From a virus, in IMG/VR virus record IMGVR_UViG_3300048587_000983: a DNA stretch of 64,000 nt, one strand, 5' to 3'. A model generated the notes under the pieces. The model was given only the letters and a program-made list of their open reading frames with translations, ran no database searches and had not been told where the DNA came from. Position 1 is the stretch's first letter; each line of letters opens with the position of its first letter. This document shows positions 1 through 7,188 of this stretch, one piece after another. Made by a program: the position numbers and the translations under genes.

Positions 1-2
1 AA

Positions 3-479
3 AAAGTAAGCGACACGAGCTTTTGGAGCAAGGACAACGCCGGCAGGCGTCTTCAGGATTTTGAAGCCAAAATCGATTTCTCCGCTCTGAGCTTTATCTC
101 GCTCAACTACGGCGACGACGCCATTATAAGCCGGGAGGACGAGACTGCCTATATCGAGCAGATGAACAGGATGTTTGAAAGCCTCGGCGAGGAGGGTCGC
201 GTAACGCCTGGGAAGTACGTCCACAAAACAGCCGTCGTAAAAGCCACGCAGCACGGGGTTCTTCTCAACGACCTTCAGATACGGCGCGTGCTCGGCTATC
301 TTTTTGACCGCATTCAGAGAATAGAGATTGCCAAAGCCGGGTCGAGCCTCAGGCTTCTTCCGGAGACGATCCGTGTGACGCTCAGCGATGGCAACCAATC
401 GAAGTCGATGGACTTTGGGACCTTCATCGCAACGCTCGATACGCTCTCGTTCTATAAAGCCTACAAAGCCGCGGAGTAA
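3..479 (+). CDS. cas7: Cas7fv-like (type I-Fv/I-F2 Cascade backbone) protein, 5'-truncated by the window edge
   Basis: Frame +3 is open from base 3 (KVSDTSFWSKDNAG...). The motifs DTSFWSK, LSFISL and KYVHK...HGVLLNDLQIR match, in order and spacing, my recollection of the Shewanella putrefaciens Cas7fv C-terminal half (STSFFSK, LQFISL, NYVRR...CGILLNDDAVK). It is followed by a Cas5fv-like gene and the array. Recalled comparison, not a computed alignment. Confidence 0.72.
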   Translation, partial: KVSDTSFWSKDNAGRRLQDFEAKIDFSALSFISLNYGDDAIISREDETAYIEQMNRMFESLGEEGRVTPGKYVHKTAVVKATQHGVLLNDLQIRRVLGYLFDRIQRIEIAKAGSSLRLLPETIRVTLSDGNQSKSMDFGTFIATLDTLSFYKAYKAAE

Positions 480-481
480 GC

Positions 482-1588
482 ATGCACCTTCTCATTCGGG
501 CGCGCAGCGGCGGGCTCATTATAAAAACGGACACAAACGGCTACTGCGCCATGGACCTTTGCGAGGGTGAGGGGGAAAGGTTTCTGCCCCTCTGCGGCGA
601 GTCGATGCGCCGGGGAATGCTCTCTTATATCCTTGGTGAGGTGAGGCGAGTGCATGCCAAGCACTCCGAGCCGCCCCTTTTCGATGACCCCATGCGCGAG
701 ACCATGCTCGCGCGGATGAAGTGCCGCGTTGTAAGAGAGCCCTTTTGCCACACGGTCTTCGGACAGTATTCGTCGAAGGTCCTTCCGAGCAAAATAAGGA
801 TTGACGATTTCGGCTGGCAATATGCGAATACGCTCATCGCGCACCTCCGCCCTGCACTGACGAGGGTCACGGGCGCCGAGAGCCTTGGCGACGTGAATGC
901 GGCCCTCCAGGATGCCCTCTCGGTGTCCGCGGTGAGACAGAGGCGATTTCATGTGGCACTGAAGAAAAAGAGCGAAGGCAAGGAGTTGAAAGAAGTCGAT
1001 CTTCTGGCGCTTCGCTACAAGGACGAGCTCGAAGCCGCCGTACCAAAGCTCGACCGTTTTAATGCGACTTCCAAAATAGAGAGCAAGTTCCTCGAATACC
1101 TGGGGCAGGCCGCAGGGTATATCCACAATGGCTTTTCCGGACGAAAGATTCCGGTATCAAAGACCCACTTTGAGCTGCTCGGGGAGATTCACCGCCTCTG
1201 CGGCGACCCCACATGGCGCGACCGGTTGAACGATGTGAAATCCACGAAGTTCTCGATCATTCCTTATCCGCAGCACACCGGCCAGTGGGTGGATATCCCG
1301 CCGGAACGTGTCCTTTATGTTCGCGGCGCACCCATGACTTTTGCGACCACGGATTTCGACCTTCTCATTGAAAATCTGACCGAAGAAGAGGAGGCGCGTG
1401 TACGAAGTGGCCCCATGAGCTGCTTTTACGGCAAGTGGGGCACAGGTTTTGTGTCTCTCGAATACAGCTTGCCAAAGGGCGATTTCGATGCGAGTTTCCC
1501 TGTTTTAAGCGAGGCTTCTCTAAAAGCCGCGGGCGTCGATTTTCCAAGGGTAAAGACAGAAGCGGGCAGCGAGGAGGAGGAGCGGTAG
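482..1588 (+). CDS. cas5: Cas5fv-like RAMP protein (368 aa)
   Basis: N-terminal RGMLSYILGEVRRV resembles Cas5fv MGVLNRLIGDQRKL. C-terminal SCFYGKWGTGFVS resembles the Cas5fv Gly-rich loop SSFYLGKKGLAYVS (both recalled). Size and position after cas7fv fit the I-Fv gene order. Confidence 0.6.
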   Translation: MHLLIRARSGGLIIKTDTNGYCAMDLCEGEGERFLPLCGESMRRGMLSYILGEVRRVHAKHSEPPLFDDPMRETMLARMKCRVVREPFCHTVFGQYSSKVLPSKIRIDDFGWQYANTLIAHLRPALTRVTGAESLGDVNAALQDALSVSAVRQRRFHVALKKKSEGKELKEVDLLALRYKDELEAAVPKLDRFNATSKIESKFLEYLGQAAGYIHNGFSGRKIPVSKTHFELLGEIHRLCGDPTWRDRLNDVKSTKFSIIPYPQHTGQWVDIPPERVLYVRGAPMTFATTDFDLLIENLTEEEEARVRSGPMSCFYGKWGTGFVSLEYSLPKGDFDASFPVLSEASLKAAGVDFPRVKTEAGSEEEER

Positions 1589-1621
1589 AATGAGCTAATA
1601 ATCCTGTGCATTGAGAGCTTT

Positions 1622-2985
1622 GCTCCTCGGAGCGTTATGCGTCGCTTACATCGGCTCTCGCGGCCCCAAAAAAGGGGGCGTCAGGTCGCGCACAAGGCGT
1701 GCGCGGTAGGTGAAGGTAGGAAATAAAAAATCAGGCTCGAAAGAGCGTTAGAAAAGAGTAGAAGCTTGGGCAAGGGCACGCCGCTCGGTAAAGAGCGTTA
1801 GAAAAGAGAAAATGATGCGACAGACGCCCGTCCGCTCAATAGGGAGCGCTAGGAGAGAATAGTCGAGAAACCAGATATATTTCAGCTCGTGAGAGCGCTA
1901 GAAGAGTATCGAAGCTGTGACTCCCTGCTCGTGAGAGCGTTAGGCAAATAAGCCAGTATTTGGTGCACACGGTGCGCGATAGGAGATAGAGCGGGGAACA
2001 TCGTGAAAGGCGCGATAGAAGGAAAGGATCCGCGAAACGCGGCCTGCAAAGCTCCTTCGGGAGCGTTAAAGGGATAGAAGGCACGCCAAGCAACGCCTTT
2101 GCTCGTGGAGCGCTATACCAGCGCTCGCAAGAGCGGTAGGAGGAAGTCCACGGAAATCCCCATAGAGGGCAGCTCTTACGCGAGCGGTATTTGAAAGGAC
2201 CTTAATGTTCACAGCGGCTCGAAAGAGCGATAGACGGAAAGACTGTGTTTCTGTGGAGGGCTCCCTTGGGAGCGATAGGCAGGGCTGGTGGGCGGGTGGA
2301 ATGAAAGCTCCACATCTACCGAGCGATAGGCAGGATAAGTTTGCGTGCTTGATTGGCTCGAAGGAGCGATAGACGGTGCATTTCACGATGCGAACAAAGG
2401 CTTCAGAAGCGTTAGACGGTGACCGTGCGAGCGGCAGAGTGTTCTTTGGAACGTTAGAAAAATAGACGATATCGCACCACTACGGCTCGAAAGAGCGATA
2501 AAGGTCAGCTGAAACGAAGTCCCGTAATGCTCGATGAGCGATAGAAAAGGACAGCTAAAAGTTAGCTATGCAGTGAGCTCCTTGGAGCGATAGCAGACAT
2601 TCAACCTCACTGTGGGCCAGCCTTGCTCCGTGGAGCGTTAGATGGAAGGTAGGCCTCCTTAGACCGATGGGCATGACCTGCTCGCTTTGGAGCGTTAGGA
2701 GACAAGTGCAGGAGCAGGGATTTGATTAAAGCTCGAAGGAGCGATAGAGGAACTATAAATTCATTTACATGGTCGGCTGTGCTCGAAAGAGCGTTACGAA
2801 ACAAGCCTTAGAAGGCGGGAAATCGGAAAGCTCAAAGGAGCGATAAGCGGCAAGATTACGGATAGGGTTTCAAGAAGGCTCGAAAGAGCGATAGCAGAAA
2901 GCGGCATTAGGTCGGCCTCGCAGAAGGCTCTGAGAGCGGTAGAAGGATTTAATCATAAATTGATGCGTGCCGGAAGGCGCGAGCG
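1622..2985 (+). CRISPR. Degenerate CRISPR-like hairpin array, about 29 units (plus 2 weaker units)
   Basis: 29 hairpins are each followed by GNTA(G). The GNTA motifs start at 1634, 1705, 1747, 1797, 1848, 1897, 1939, 1978, 2014, 2065, 2112, 2135, 2186, 2229, 2274, 2325, 2368, 2411, 2453, 2497, 2540, 2589, 2637, 2694, 2743, 2793, 2842, 2890 and 2938. 24 of 29 stems are GCTC/GAGC. Intervening sequences are unique. Weaker units at 1663-1684 and 2967-2985. Confidence 0.85.
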
Positions 2986-3020
2986 AGTGTGCCAATTTCT
3001 GTAATTTCACGCGGGAAATT

Positions 3021-3040
3021 GGTATAAGGCTTTTGTAGGA
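3021..3040 (+). promoter_or_regulatory. GGTATAAG phage promoter-like motif
   Basis: GGTATAAG GCTTTTGTAGGA. The upstream TTTCTGTAATTTCA (2996-3009) is repeated exactly at 26665-26678 with the same spacing. Confidence 0.65.
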
Positions 3041-3109
3041 AGAGGACTTAGCTTTGAGCTGAGTCCTCTTTTTAATTTTGAAACATAAAAATTTAAATCA
3101 GGAGAGCGC

Positions 3110-3499
3110 ATGAATTTGGATTTTGGATCTGAAAGCGTTTTGCAGGCTATTACGTTCAGCATCGTACCCGTTGTTGTTCTGCTCATAATTCTTTTCCGTC
3201 AGAAAGAAAAGCACGCTTCGCCCACCGAGGATGTAAATCTGGGCCGTCTGAAAAATCTCATGGATTACGTAGCTCGCAACCTCAGGAGTGCCGAGTGGCC
3301 CCTGAAAGACCCGGCACCCGCACTGGCCCTTTACAATGTGATGCGAACGCTGGAAGCTGTGCACCGCGACCTTGTCGAGGCCAAGGCTGCCGGATCCGGT
3401 GGGCTTGCGGAGATACTCCCGCAGCTTGAGAGACTTGTAAAGGAGGTTGTTGACAAGCAGCGGTCGGAGCTTGAACTCGACTATGAGGAGATTGCGTGA
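3110..3499 (+). CDS. Hypothetical protein with N-terminal TM helix
   Basis: SD AGGAG; hydrophobic stretch ITFSIVPVVVLLIILF. Confidence 0.75.
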   Translation: MNLDFGSESVLQAITFSIVPVVVLLIILFRQKEKHASPTEDVNLGRLKNLMDYVARNLRSAEWPLKDPAPALALYNVMRTLEAVHRDLVEAKAAGSGGLAEILPQLERLVKEVVDKQRSELELDYEEIA

Positions 3500-3963
3500 T
3501 GACAAAGGAAGAGATGCGAATGATGCGGGCCGTTCTTGAGGGGATGACCCAGGGTATGGATTTTACAGGGCGCTGCAAAACCTGGGAGGCCATGCTGAGG
3601 GGCTCAAGGAAAGAGGATTGGGGCCTTGAGTTTGAGGCCAGGGAAAGCAGGCGCTCGGAGCTGGAAAAGGAGGCCGAGCGCTATGAAGCACTGCTGCCCG
3701 AGATCGAGATCAGTTCCGACGAGTACCACAAGGTCGTGACGGAGGCCTGCAAGGAAGGAGCGCGGCAGGAGCCTACGCTCGCTTATCCGGAGGCCTTCAA
3801 GGACCTTATGACGGTCAGCAGTTTTGAGATCGACACAGGACACTCGCCAGAATACCTCATGCTCAAAGGTCAGAGCCTTATGATCGCAAGACTTAAGGAG
3901 ATGGCGAAGAGCAAAAGACTTCGGGAGGATCTGGCGCGAAGGGTTATGATCAGGCTTGTCTGA
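3499..3963 (+). CDS. Hypothetical protein
   Basis: TGATG overlap with the upstream stop codon; 154 aa. Confidence 0.7.
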   Translation: MTKEEMRMMRAVLEGMTQGMDFTGRCKTWEAMLRGSRKEDWGLEFEARESRRSELEKEAERYEALLPEIEISSDEYHKVVTEACKEGARQEPTLAYPEAFKDLMTVSSFEIDTGHSPEYLMLKGQSLMIARLKEMAKSKRLREDLARRVMIRLV

Positions 3964-3981
3964 AAAATCCCTGGAATTATT

Positions 3982-4001
3982 GGTATAAGGTTACTGTAGG
4001 A
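3982..4001 (+). promoter_or_regulatory. GGTATAAG promoter-like motif
   Basis: GGTATAAG GTTACTGTAGGA, intergenic. Confidence 0.65.
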
Positions 4002-4074
4002 GAAAATGTAGCATGCCTCGGGCTGCTGCATTTTTTTGTTTGGGAATCGAAAAATTTATACATCAGGAGTCGTT

Positions 4075-4338
4075 ATGCTTAGTCTAGTCAAAGAGATATT
4101 CAAAGCTATTATTAAGTCTCAGAGTCGCTTCTACTGGTCGATGTTTCTTCTTTGCATCGGAACTCAGATTGCTGCATTTGCCTTTATCCTTCCCTTCGGC
4201 TTCTGGTACGCACTCGCGGTAACCAGCGTGCTCCAGTGGCTTTGGATTCCAGCTCTGAACCACTGGTTCAACTGGGAGAGCTATGTCAGCGCTCTCTTCG
4301 TTCCTGACGAGCTTCGCGTTTCAAGGAGCAGAAAATGA
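4075..4338 (+). CDS. Small membrane protein (2 TM)
   Basis: SD AGGAG at 4065; two hydrophobic segments. Confidence 0.7.
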   Translation: MLSLVKEIFKAIIKSQSRFYWSMFLLCIGTQIAAFAFILPFGFWYALAVTSVLQWLWIPALNHWFNWESYVSALFVPDELRVSRSRK

Positions 4339-4616
4339 AAGGTCTGACTCACAAAGAAACCCGGAACTACTGGAAGAAAGTTATAGACGATGCCAGGAAA
4401 TCTGGCATTACCGGTACACGGTACTGCAAACTTAACGGCATCCACTTGGCATCCTTTCGGAAATGGAGCCAGCGATACGCAACAAAATCGCAGAAAAGAC
4501 TACTGGCTCGGGAAGCTGAGAGACGGAAAGAAATTGAGTTGAAAATGGTCGCCATCAAACTAATGAGAACCGCTCTACGCGAACTGGTCCTGGAAATAAA
4601 AGGCCGAGATATTTGA
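4335..4616 (+). CDS. Stand-alone IS66 TnpA-like HTH protein
   Basis: YWKKVIDDARKSGITGTRYCKLNGIHLASFRKW resembles the IS66 TnpA HTH pattern; no tnpB or tnpC nearby. Confidence 0.55.
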   Translation: MKGLTHKETRNYWKKVIDDARKSGITGTRYCKLNGIHLASFRKWSQRYATKSQKRLLAREAERRKEIELKMVAIKLMRTALRELVLEIKGRDI

Positions 4617-4632
4617 ATTTGACAAACAAACT

Positions 4633-4812
4633 ACCAGGAGAATGCAACATGAAACCCATTATACTTAAGTCTCTTTCCTACAAAATAAAATCAATCGGTC
4701 AAGCTCTGCATGCAGTTTTCGATCCTTCCAAAGCCCGCCGCAAAACGGTGTGGGAAAATCTGAATCGCTACTAAAAATAACAACCAGGAGAACGCAACAT
4801 GAAAACCATTAT
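4633..4812 (+). repeat. 30-nt direct repeat covering SD and start codon (4633-4662 and 4783-4812)
   Basis: ACCAGGAGAA(T/C)GCAACATGAAA(C/A)CCATTAT, 28 of 30 identical. Confidence 0.85.
4649..4774 (+). CDS. Small hypothetical protein (41 aa), not in the ORF track
   Basis: Strong SD (CCAGGAG) followed by MKPIILKSLSYKIKSIGQALHAVFDPSKARRKTVWENLNRY*. Confidence 0.55.
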   Translation: MKPIILKSLSYKIKSIGQALHAVFDPSKARRKTVWENLNRY

Positions 4813-5533
4813 GATCCTTGCCGCTTTGGCTCTTAACGCATGTGCTACCAATGACTACAAAGTCAAAACCATCTCGACCGCACTCGATCTCAAAGGGAAT
4901 GTGAACGGCCAAAAGCTTGGACTCAACGGCGAAAACGAAGCCATTCTTCAGGAAGAAGTTCGTGCCCAGGACGAGCTGCGTATCGCTGAAAACGTGAACG
5001 CCTATTTTGAAGAAAAGATTGCAAGCGAAGCTGCTGAGATCAAGCGCTGCATGACGGACCTCGCCGACCCCCGCCTTGGTGGCCGCGGTGAACTGCCAGC
5101 GGAAATCGACTACGACATGCGCCCCTTTGAAAAGGTCAAAGAGGAGTTTGGCCTCGCTGAAGATGGCGATCTTAAAATTGTCCGCAAAAGCTATTACGTG
5201 GACCGTCTTAAGGCCGCCAGGAGCTACGACGTGAGCCTCCGCAAGATGCTAAAGGTCGTCAAACGCCAACACGAGGAATGCATGTTCAAGCTGGGCATAG
5301 CCCGGAACAAGGCAGGTCTTCCCAGTGAACGTGTGATGGCTGAAGGCTATTTCACAAGCAACGGCAAATGGGTTGAAACCCGGAAGGGTGAGAACTCAGT
5401 TGGTGATGCTTTCGAGATCCAGGCTGAAAACAAAGCCCGCTCAGGCGCTGTCAGAATCGAAGTCGTTCAGCCAGGAACCGCTTACATTTACAAGCCCGTT
5501 AAGGTCGACGAGTACGGCAACGTGCTCGACTGA
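4799..5533 (+). CDS. Predicted lipoprotein
   Basis: Signal peptide MKTIMILAALALNAC with a lipobox-like Cys. Confidence 0.75.
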   Translation: MKTIMILAALALNACATNDYKVKTISTALDLKGNVNGQKLGLNGENEAILQEEVRAQDELRIAENVNAYFEEKIASEAAEIKRCMTDLADPRLGGRGELPAEIDYDMRPFEKVKEEFGLAEDGDLKIVRKSYYVDRLKAARSYDVSLRKMLKVVKRQHEECMFKLGIARNKAGLPSERVMAEGYFTSNGKWVETRKGENSVGDAFEIQAENKARSGAVRIEVVQPGTAYIYKPVKVDEYGNVLD

Positions 5534-5563
5534 TCTCTCTTTGGTAGGTGTAGGATTCACTTG

Positions 5564-5592
5564 AGGCCGGCCTTCGGGCTGGCCTTTTATTT
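5564..5592 (+). terminator. Rho-independent terminator
   Basis: AGGCCGGCC-TTCG-GGCTGGCCT followed by TTTATTT. Confidence 0.8.
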
Positions 5593-5613
5593 CAAAAAAC
5601 TTAGGAGTCCAAA

Positions 5614-7188
5614 ATGAAATCGCAACTTTTGTATTCGCTCGTTCTCTACAGTACCCTTGCCGCCTGCGGTGCCGATTCCGGCTCCGGTGTGGCGCCCGTA
5701 ACCCTTCCCACCAGCGTTCCAGCACCGGTCGCAAAACCAACTGATGAAGCCAAAGTAGAGGCGAAGGCTGAAAGCAAAGTCGAAGCCCCTATCGAAGCTC
5801 AAAAGACGGCGACCCCCGCAGTCGAGGAGACTGCTCCTGCCAAGGCTTTGAAGCTCACAGACCCGGACTGCGTTGACCCCAACCTGGCCGAAGTCAAAAC
5901 CGGTGTTCAGCTGATGCTCTGCGACGGCACGATCGCCACGGGTACGCTTGTCATCCCCGCCGCCCCTGACCTTAGCAACCTCACAGCCGGAAACGTAAAA
6001 TCGGGTGTGACGATTGCCGGTGTCACAGGAAACTATGCTGGCGCTTCCTACAGCTCCTGCTCGGCCAACGGCGAGGAAGGCTGCGTAACGAACGCCAGCT
6101 TCAAAGCTGCCAACCTCAGTAACCTTTCAGCTGCCAACGTAAAGTCGGGTGTGACGATCGCTGGCATCACCGGATCGCTTGCCGTGGAGTCGCATGTCGA
6201 CTGCAGCGCAAACGGTCAGTCGGGCTGCGTCGCCACATCCACCTACAAAGCCGCTGATATTGCAAACCTCTCGGCTGCCAACGTAAAGTCGGGTGTGACG
6301 ATTGCTGGCGTTTCCGGTTCGCTCGTCGTTGAGTCGCACTCGGACTGTACTAGCAACGGTCAAACGGGTTGCGTTACGGGCGAGACCTACAAGGCCGCTG
6401 ACCTTACAAACCTTGTGGCTGCAAACCTCAAAAATGGTGTGGCCGTCGCCGGTGTGACCGGTACCTACCCTTCGGCTTCGGCCCCTCTGGCCTCGGCCAC
6501 CGCAACTGCCGACCTCGATGCGGCCACGTTCAACCTGAAGATCAAATCGGACGCCCAATTTGAATACTTTGATTCAACCGGCGCCCGCCATACCCAGACA
6601 GGTAACTCGGCCTTGACAGCCGAAAACATTAAATCCGATGTGACCCTCTTCAATGTCTCGGGTACTCTTGAACCCGCAAGTGAAATCACGATCGACCCGT
6701 GGGATCTTCGCTTCGGCAAGACTGTCAATGGTGTCTCGGGTAAACTCAAGGCTCACTGCCGGACTCACGACAGCGGGACCGTTCCCGTTGGCGAAAGCTG
6801 TGCTCAAAATGAAATCTGGCAGGACCTGACCTCGCTCTCGTCTTCGACAGCATCGACCTGCGCCGGGGACCCCTCCAACTGCATGTGGAAGGACCGCATC
6901 TCGGGACTGTACGTGTCCAAGCAAATGGGTAGCGGTAACCGCAACACAGCCGTCAACGGTTGTCTGAACCTCGTCTACGGCGGTTTCGATGATTGGCGTC
7001 TTCCTTCCTCCGATGAGGCTATCACGCTCTCAACCCACGGTGCCGCCGAAAACAGCGTTGTCGCATGGTATGGCTCGTGGACGTCGAGCACATACTCGAT
7101 GAGCTATTACATCGCTATCATGGGGGCTAGCGTCGGCGCTCTAAAAACGGCCAGCGACACGGCCAACTACTTTTGCGTTCGCAAGTAA
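5614..7188 (+). CDS. Lipoprotein with 48-aa Cys-containing repeats and a C-terminal DUF1566/Lcl-like domain
   Basis: Lipobox LAAC; Pro/Ala linker; repeats; GGFDDWRLPSSDEAITL and terminal YFCVRK are typical of DUF1566. Confidence 0.7.
   Translation: MKSQLLYSLVLYSTLAACGADSGSGVAPVTLPTSVPAPVAKPTDEAKVEAKAESKVEAPIEAQKTATPAVEETAPAKALKLTDPDCVDPNLAEVKTGVQLMLCDGTIATGTLVIPAAPDLSNLTAGNVKSGVTIAGVTGNYAGASYSSCSANGEEGCVTNASFKAANLSNLSAANVKSGVTIAGITGSLAVESHVDCSANGQSGCVATSTYKAADIANLSAANVKSGVTIAGVSGSLVVESHSDCTSNGQTGCVTGETYKAADLTNLVAANLKNGVAVAGVTGTYPSASAPLASATATADLDAATFNLKIKSDAQFEYFDSTGARHTQTGNSALTAENIKSDVTLFNVSGTLEPASEITIDPWDLRFGKTVNGVSGKLKAHCRTHDSGTVPVGESCAQNEIWQDLTSLSSSTASTCAGDPSNCMWKDRISGLYVSKQMGSGNRNTAVNGCLNLVYGGFDDWRLPSSDEAITLSTHGAAENSVVAWYGSWTSSTYSMSYYIAIMGASVGALKTASDTANYFCVRK
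5971..6462 (+). repeat. Intragenic tandem repeat, 144-nt period, about 3.4 copies
   Basis: Units start at 5971, 6115, 6259 and 6403 (L.NL.AANVKSGVTIAGV.G......C..NG..GCV....YKAAD). Confidence 0.85.

Follow-up and report, generated by a model that had tools for sequence, protein, structure and literature searches.

Can an array of small hairpins whose repeats share hardly any sequence be a CRISPR array? The question is raised by a non-coding region behind three cas-like genes in a phage genome of 166,638 bp (~167 kb; IMG/VR record IMGVR_UViG_3300048587_000983, rated 100% complete). We analysed a stretch of 64,000 nucleotides (nt) of this genome, referred to here as the window, which is the minus strand of the record; the strand of the window is called plus below. 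We conclude, with a probability of roughly 0.8, that the region is the guide-RNA (CRISPR RNA, crRNA) array of a minimal CRISPR-type system that the phage encodes and that consists of Cascade only, in which the products of the three neighbouring genes would read the hairpins, cap the handles and form the backbone along the guides.

Array anatomy and repeat structure

Each unit of the array consists of a hairpin of 3-6 bp (mostly GCUC-N3-10-GAGC), a handle of ~9 nt with the pattern G-N-U-A-g-r-n-R-R, and a variable guide. The array and its exceptional units are as follows, where handles such as L002 denote homologous loci and orthologous units were defined by their guides.

1622-2975, plus strand: array of 29 head-to-tail units, which were counted at 1622-2949; the same type of array is present in all homologous loci
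1688-1704, plus strand: variant stem GCGCAC/GTGCGC (unit 2); orthologues carry GCAC/GTGC (L002, L005) and GCTC/GAGC (L004)
1963-1977, plus strand: variant stem GTGCAC/GTGCGC with one U.G pair (unit 8); orthologues carry GTGCGC/GTGCGC (L002) and GCGC/GCGC (L005)
2003-2013, plus strand: weakest unit, with a 3-bp stem GUG/CGC (unit 9) and no predicted fold when taken alone; the L002 copy is identical
2101-2122, plus strand: truncated unit 11, a hairpin and handle followed by only 6 nt, compared with L002 and L003
2400-2410, plus strand: variant stem GCUU/AAGC (unit 18); the L005 orthologue GCTT/GAGC is a U.G intermediate, and L002 has GCTT/AAGC
2441-2452, plus strand: variant stem GUUC/GAAC (unit 19), whose orthologue in L002 does not pair cleanly
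2976-2993, plus strand: terminator-like hairpin right behind the last unit, found by a consensus scan (weak evidence)

An initial annotation of these letters had described the repeat as conserved RNA structure, and its counts were reproduced in full. The stem is GCTC/GAGC in 24 of the 29 units, and the five exceptions (1688, 1963, 2003, 2400 and 2441) all stay paired. Loops span 3-10 nt and include eight GNRA tetraloops (GAAA five times, GTGA twice, GCAA once) as well as C(TTCG)G at 2051-2064. GNTA follows every one of the 29 stems, with G at the fifth handle position in 22. The pattern GCTC-N3-10-GAGC-GNTA was found 24 times in the 64-kb window, always on the plus strand and always within 1622-2941; the chance expectation from dinucleotide shuffles was 0.39 ± 0.65, with a maximum of 3.

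A covariance model, which the annotation had proposed as a check, was built from 14 window units. Of its 28 matches with E<1 in the window, 27 lay on the plus strand at 1616-2949, and a search of the whole 166.6-kb genome gave no match outside the array. Taken in isolation, the hairpins folded with a mean of −4.2 kcal/mol (−0.65 kcal/mol when shuffled), and 28 of 29 folded as proposed. The global minimum free energy (MFE) fold of the whole array was uninformative, with arms of different units pairing to each other.

By the usual signs of a canonical CRISPR array, the region gave a mixed picture. There are no near-identical direct repeats of ~23-50 nt: only ~12 repeat positions are informative, namely the 4-bp stem and handle positions G1, U3, A4, R8 and R9. 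Tandem Repeats Finder reported no tandem repeat in positions 1-6000, and scanning the window for Rfam families and tRNAs likewise gave no match. The 29 inter-unit sequences are all different, as unique spacers are, though they fall into several length classes 6 nt apart.

The same architecture recurs in related phages. The 368-aa protein encoded directly upstream of the array has 12 relatives at 64-90% identity; nine homologues (64-88% identity) led to 11 loci. In all of them the three genes stand ahead of a non-coding stretch of 1.2-2.7 kb, which is filled with 20-50 units like those of the window. The covariance model made from the window gave 216 matches in eight further non-redundant loci, all but five of them on the plus strand and inside the arrays. 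Other routes to relatives yielded nothing: the Cas7fv-like protein had no relatives in an IMG/VR search and no tblastn match among 50,697 phage records, and a metagenome search with the Cas5fv-like alignment gave no confirmed relatives. A 17-nt unit pattern searched in bacterial genomes found no arrays; nearly all matches were single, with one locus holding two, and we estimate that their number is about that expected by chance.

The annotation had further proposed that selection acts on a folded plus-strand RNA, with stem and handle being read and the loop left free. Comparison of homologous loci supports this proposal. Between the window and L002, compared over well-aligned blocks only (which favours the guides somewhat), stems show an identity of 96.0%, guides of 88.2%, the handle of 85.7% and loops of 75.2%; at third codon positions in the neighbouring cas genes it is 68.4-68.7%. 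With a loop identity of 75.2% against ~68% at silent sites, the loops are near neutral. When sites were anchored by the handle motif alone, a stem of 4 bp or more abutted the handle without a gap in 231 of 286 (81%), compared with 15% of random array positions. The handles of 231 canonical hairpins from nine arrays carry G1 in 231/231, U3 in 229/231 and A4 in 218/231, G5 in 62%, and a purine in 93% at each of positions 8 and 9; nothing is conserved 5' of the stem in the same set.

Variant stems were informative as well. Among 3' arms other than GAGC, 25 of 48 pair with their own upstream sequence, compared with 19% when arms were swapped between units and 14% when they were shuffled; by our arithmetic this is about six standard deviations over the null. 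Many of the remaining sites are 3-bp GCC/GGC stems. Units that are orthologous by their guides alone carry different stems that are nevertheless paired, such as GCTC/GAGC, GCAC/GTGC and GCGCAC/GTGCGC, and GTGCC/GGCGC, GCGT/ACGC and CCGC/GCGG were found opposite GCTC/GAGC. One series runs from GCTC/GAGC through GCTT/GAGC (the U.G intermediate, in L005) to GCTT/AAGC (in the window and L002). Of one orthology run, in which loose anchoring let in very many spurious anchors, these comparisons use the clear families and no totals. Mismatches also revealed the strand: U.G wobbles (~19) far outnumber A.C mismatches (3), which fixes plus as the strand of the RNA.

Covariation across homologues, a lack of which the annotation had named as one refutation, was seen in the paired variant stems of orthologous units; model-fitted alignments yielded little covariation in the formal sense, since the majority of their stems do not vary. 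In an alignment of 100 model matches, 99.7% of cells were paired, with three double changes from U-A to G-C, a level reached in 0 of 500 shuffles. The covariance model itself selects against variant stems, and because covariation inside the window rests on five units, it is the homologous arrays that carry the statistical weight. The emphasis on stable tetraloops held in part: GNRA loops are enriched (50 of 184 tetraloops, 27%, vs ~3% expected), but the loops share no fixed sequence and evolve almost neutrally. Taken together, the comparisons support the view that what persists of the repeat is its structure and not its sequence, apparently through stem pairing plus a few handle bases.

Several further features of the arrays were observed. 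At the position of unit 11, L002 and L003 carry a full guide plus one extra unit, which indicates a unit-precise deletion and loss of units by recombination between hairpins. A GAGC-GGTAG half-unit at 1580-1590 of the window overlaps the stop codon of the cas5fv-like gene, and in two other loci (L012:5684-5697 and L010:6124-6153) the first hairpin-handle unit overlaps the last cas5fv-like codons; the array thus begins inside or at the end of the coding sequence, without a separate leader. Between the array and the next gene block stands TTGGTATAAG (window 3020-3028), which resembles an extended -10 promoter element and is also conserved just 3' of the arrays in L004, L005 and L010. In L009:6196-7643, many canonical hairpins are followed by GATG, GATC, GCTC or GGTT and not by GNTA, roughly alternating with normal units; perhaps they represent another class of handle, or else units that are dead. 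A stretch of ~190 nt with another short repeat (of the CTAGTTATTT / CTAGATAC.TCTAGTGA type) interrupts the 50-unit array at L010:6908-7100; it might serve as a promoter or operator inside the array, or might have been inserted there.

Guide lengths and guide conservation

We measured the distance from the start of the handle to the next stem in 275 units (window 1634-2975 and L002-L012). The distances peak at 24/25, 30/31, 36/37 and 42/43 nt. Guide length is quantised, at about two to five six-nt segments plus 3-4 nt. Each unit holds a single continuous guide, inside which no second conserved motif was found.

The arrays of the window, L002 and L003 are colinear, and their differences are insertions or deletions of whole units and point substitutions in guides. 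Grouping the units of 11 arrays by guide similarity gave 49 variable orthologous families, for which we counted the minimum number of substitutions per position from the handle G. The counts were 9, 8, 9, 4 and 5 at positions 10-14 and 37 at position 15; 12, 7, 14, 14 and 12 at positions 16-20 and 35 at position 21; and 19, 23, 24, 19 and 17 at positions 22-26 and 41 at position 27. The excess of substitutions at every sixth base was highly significant (binomial p = 6e-14 and 6e-16). Examples of families with this 5+1 pattern are AAAGA-n-TGTGT-n... and TGCAT-n-TCACG-n-TGC....

A free base at every sixth position, together with the strongest constraint beside the handle, is the geometry of Cas7-bound type I guides and their seed. 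Regular interruptions are present in the I-F2 structure (PMC12956352), and I-Fv Cascade adds or omits Cas7fv subunits according to guide length (PMC4937334).

In canonical CRISPR, spacers turn over through acquisition by Cas1-Cas2, and related genomes have either identical spacers in common or none. This was not seen here, since the spacers of different phages are orthologues set apart by point substitutions. Judged by their sequences, the orthologous guides are inherited across the clade and not newly captured. When one guide pattern was searched in metagenome and viral contigs, two matches were obtained, both chance-like: one lies in a coding region and the other on a contig whose end bears C4A4 repeats.

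Operon genes, proposed system and alternatives

The three genes stand in the order cas6e-like, cas7fv-like, cas5fv-like on the strand of the array, which follows them; adjacency to cas genes is a property shared with canonical CRISPR arrays. Coordinates with the prefix L001 lie outside or partly outside the window.

L001:3458-3949, minus strand on L001, 457-948 nt upstream of the window start: cas6e-like gene, 163 aa, at the head of the operon
3-479, plus strand: 3' part of the cas7fv-like gene; the complete gene (307 aa, L001:2522-3445, minus strand) begins 444 nt before the window
482-1588, plus strand: cas5fv-like gene, 368 aa, whose model has a RAMP (repeat-associated mysterious protein) core with a central helical insertion

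The 163-aa protein matched PF08798 (25.1 bits) and TIGR01907 (E 9e-4) and has a C-terminal glycine-rich Cas6 loop. Its predicted structure (pLDDT, predicted local distance difference test, 86.5) was matched by Foldseek to the Cas6e entries 4tvx_M/4dzd with TM (template modelling) scores of 0.65-0.69 and a probability of 1.00. His17 is invariant in nine homologues and lies near the position where we take the catalytic His of Cas6e to be. The Cas6f expected of type I-F2/I-Fv is not what stands here, as both the structure matches and the Pfam/TIGRFAM models are those of Cas6e. This Cas6e-fold protein is likely the one that reads and processes the hairpins.

For the Cas7fv-like protein, NCBIfam NF040577 (cas_Cas7fv) gave E 6.5e-20 and 71.7 bits, which is under the 200-bit equivalog cut-off; the comparison with PDB 5o6u_C (Cas7fv) gave E 5e-8, and PF28157 (Cas7fv-like) was found on its homologues. 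By these profile matches, the protein is a relative of Cas7fv and not an equivalog, and the backbone subunit of type I-F2/I-Fv has a counterpart here.

The 368-aa protein had no Pfam, NCBIfam, PADLOC or PHROG match. The best Foldseek matches of its AlphaFold model were 9g44_B (E 1.7e-4) and 5o6u_F (E 5.5e-4), both from I-F2/I-Fv Cascade and with VIA Z of 5.4 and 5.2; the next-ranked matches were chains from type I-E, I-A and I-B Cascade entries. We take 9g44_B and 5o6u_F to be the Cas5 subunit from their length. Sequence profiles of the family reached no PDB chain, and its distant relatives had no NCBIfam match. The gene always lies directly 3' of the Cas7fv-like gene (in the 11 loci with DNA and in one listed without DNA). 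With moderate confidence, the model suggests a Cas5fv-like protein.

A search of the whole genome gave no match to Cas1 (PF01867), I-F Cas2-3 (TIGR02562), the Cas3 core (TIGR01587) or Cas3 HD (PF18019), with Cas2 alone not searched, and none to DinG-type helicase models. The Cas2-3 and Cas1 that belong to type I-F2/I-Fv were thus not found. Pfam, NCBIfam and fold searches of the neighbouring genes returned only Cas RAMP matches (no Nop-domain model was run on the genome), and nothing transposon-like was noticed beside the operon, although no transposase model was searched.

Two observations concern the wider neighbourhood of such operons. At ~5.7-11 kb upstream of the window start (L001:8756-14012, minus strand), on the strand of the cas operon, lie genes for an AEP-TOTE primase-polymerase (1126 aa; PF22548, E 1e-34) and for an SNF2-family helicase of 623 aa. 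Distant Cas5fv-like relatives (loci P0019 and P0020) occur in triads with cas6e-like and Cas7fv-like genes that are followed by a large open reading frame (ORF) instead of an array. One such ORF has 578+ aa; the other has 831 aa with a weak DEAD-helicase match and stands beside AbiEi/AbiEii. The large ORF may be an effector that the phage version lacks.

We propose the following mechanism. The array would be transcribed on the plus strand, probably together with the three genes. The Cas6e-fold protein would recognise the short hairpins by shape and bind them one by one, make its cut at the stem's 3' base or 1 nt further on, and stay bound. The 8-9 nt downstream (G-N-U-A-g-r-n-R-R) would then form the 5' handle, capped by the Cas5fv-like protein through G1, U3 and A4, and Cas7fv-like subunits would coat the guide in 6-nt steps to give a complex with a backbone of variable length. 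Because only stem pairing and a few handle bases would be read, loops and the other handle positions could drift. The guides would be inherited vertically and kept by selection on their 5-nt segments, constituting a hard-wired set. Given that Cas1, Cas3 and DinG-type helicases had no match and that guides are conserved across the clade, the output would most likely be DNA binding (silencing) or the use of a host nuclease.

Several results count against the assignment to a guide-RNA array of a Cascade-type system. The hairpins are weak: in MFE folds with 36 nt of upstream context, 16 of 29 were kept and 13 of 29 lost. The best 150 matches of the covariance model show no covariation, all their stems being canonical. 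The phase of the guide periodicity implies a 9-nt handle and not the canonical 8, for which a cut placed 1 nt beyond the stem would be the explanation. The parts of the guides distal to the protospacer adjacent motif (PAM) are fully diverged between distant phages, so that full-length pairing to one shared target cannot hold. A blastn search of the array against 50,697 phage records and 72,556 plasmids found no target, and guides compared with their own phage genome, by blastn-short and by a search that ignored every sixth base, stayed at chance level in both. The Cas5fv assignment leans on a mediocre model (pLDDT 66.8, TM about 0.25, Z ~5) plus synteny.

Among other explanations an RNA decoy fares best, though we consider it improbable. 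As with RNA anti-CRISPRs, the units would imitate the CRISPR repeats of the host and sequester its Cas6 or its Cascade subunits, and the sequences between them would be mere spacers. Phages are known to carry CRISPR repeat mimics, and a decoy would agree with both the conservation of just the Cas6-bound hairpin and the handle and the lack of a target. However, in every locus the array shares an operon with its own Cas6e-like, Cas7fv-like and Cas5fv-like genes. The inter-unit sequences, moreover, are constrained (88% vs 68% neutral), periodic in the 5+1 manner from a handle-side seed, and quantised in length by 6 nt. Racr-type or solitary repeats are mimics without cas genes and with unconstrained inter-unit sequence, a description that does not fit.

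It is even less probable that the array is the decaying relic of an ordinary CRISPR array after loss of its adaptation genes, with the variation in loops and handles being erosion without function. Nine non-redundant arrays of 20-50 units keep their architecture across 64-88% protein identity; stems are 96% identical where silent sites are 68%, and changes in stems are compensated. Erosion would not give position-specific constraint in the guides either. A relic would nonetheless account for the lack of a Cas1 match, the non-identical repeats, the truncated unit at 2101, the 3-bp stem at 2003 and the broken stems of some orthologous units.

Least probable of all, the units could belong to a different RNA-guided system such as TIGR-Tas, or could be regulatory or terminator hairpins that have nothing to do with the genes beside them. 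Repeat finders also miss the stem-loop arrays of TIGR-Tas, in which structure is what is conserved (PMC12045711; 10.64898/2026.09.09.750476), and Tandem Repeats Finder drew a blank on the present array. However, family and fold searches of the neighbours yield Cas RAMPs alone, each unit has one guide and not two flanked by box C/D, the tiny loop does not enclose guides, no T-runs follow the hairpins, and the 6-nt periodicity fits Cas7. Identity with TIGR-Tas was considered and dropped, since the definitions of the arrays differ and the neighbours are Cas RAMPs.

The crRNA array of a minimal Cascade is hence the reading that we prefer. A more specific version of it, to which we give about even odds, is a non-adaptive, germline-encoded library: a Cas3-less minimal Cascade domesticated by a phage clade, with 20-50 guides as old in inheritance as the cas genes, purifying selection mainly on an 11-17-nt seed (5+1+5...) and repeats defined by shape only. 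Its role would be innate and not one in adaptive immunity: as a multiplexed, RNA-guided device it would regulate or block conserved sequences of the host or of rivals.

CRISPR arrays are defined and found by their identical repeats and are understood as records of recent acquisitions. The guides described here are old and common to diverged phages, and their constraint falls on just those positions through which a Cas7-bound guide contacts its target by pairing. If our reading is true, repeat-based searches overlook a class of Cascade arrays, and a germline library of this kind would be invisible to every CRISPR finder. Phages would then appear to employ Cascade as a fixed, multiplexed DNA-binding device, and the natural variation over ~300 units would map the minimal RNA features required by an enzyme of the Cas6e type and by a Cas5/Cas7 complex. 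The range of guide lengths found in nature (about two to five six-nt segments) and the free loop would also be directly useful for the design of compact type I tools.

Comparison with known systems

We searched the literature for such an array and found no paper describing one, which is not proof of absence. Among systems that differ more clearly, TIGR-Tas (PMC12045711) resembles the locus in having phage-borne arrays that are invisible to repeat finders and conserved as short motifs and pairing. Its unit holds two spacers of 8-12 nt flanked by box C/D motifs (PMC12045711), and the dual guides lie in the loop of a variable stem, whereas here a single guide lies between constant mini-hairpins. 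The proteins differ too, with Cas RAMPs here and Nop-domain Tas proteins there.

Type IV systems, Tn7-linked I-F3 CRISPR-associated transposons (CAST) and the compact CRISPR loci of huge phages are similar in that they are Cascade-type complexes without Cas3 on mobile elements; they act by binding or by recruiting another effector. Unlike the present locus, which lacks a DinG-type helicase match, they keep sequence-identical repeats.

The putative processing protein has the fold of Cas6e (CasE/Cse3) of type I-E. Cas6e acts on a short GC-rich stem with a tetraloop, cuts at the 3' base of the stem, leaves an 8-nt handle and stays on the hairpin. The protein found here is smaller than that of type I-E (163 aa vs ~200), its presumed stem is shorter (4-5 bp vs 6-7), and, unlike in the type I-E repeat, loop sequence and length vary between units of one array.

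The handle core U-A-G presumably resembles the I-F handle, which we take to be CUUAGAAA. The closest known system is the minimal Cascade of type I-F2 (I-Fv) from Shewanella putrefaciens CN-32, composed of Cas5fv, Cas7fv and Cas6f (PDB 5O6U, 5O7H, 9G44; PMC4937334, PMC12956352). Likenesses are a Cas7fv-like backbone protein, a putative Cas5 with a helical insertion, and the lack of Cas8 and Cas11. The crRNA would likewise consist of a 5' handle, a guide and a 3' hairpin, and the backbone could grow or shrink with guide length by 6-nt steps. Differences are the lack of a Cas1 or Cas2-3 match, a Cas6e fold in place of Cas6f, and the order cas6-cas7-cas5. Instead of the identical 28-nt repeat of I-F2/I-Fv, the array has a hairpin of 4-5 bp with a free loop and a degenerate handle of ~9 nt, and its guides come in several length classes, mostly <32 nt, and are inherited rather than acquired. 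In these terms, the locus is a derived, Cas3-less and adaptation-less variant of type I-F2/I-Fv with a Cas6e-type enzyme and structure-only repeats.

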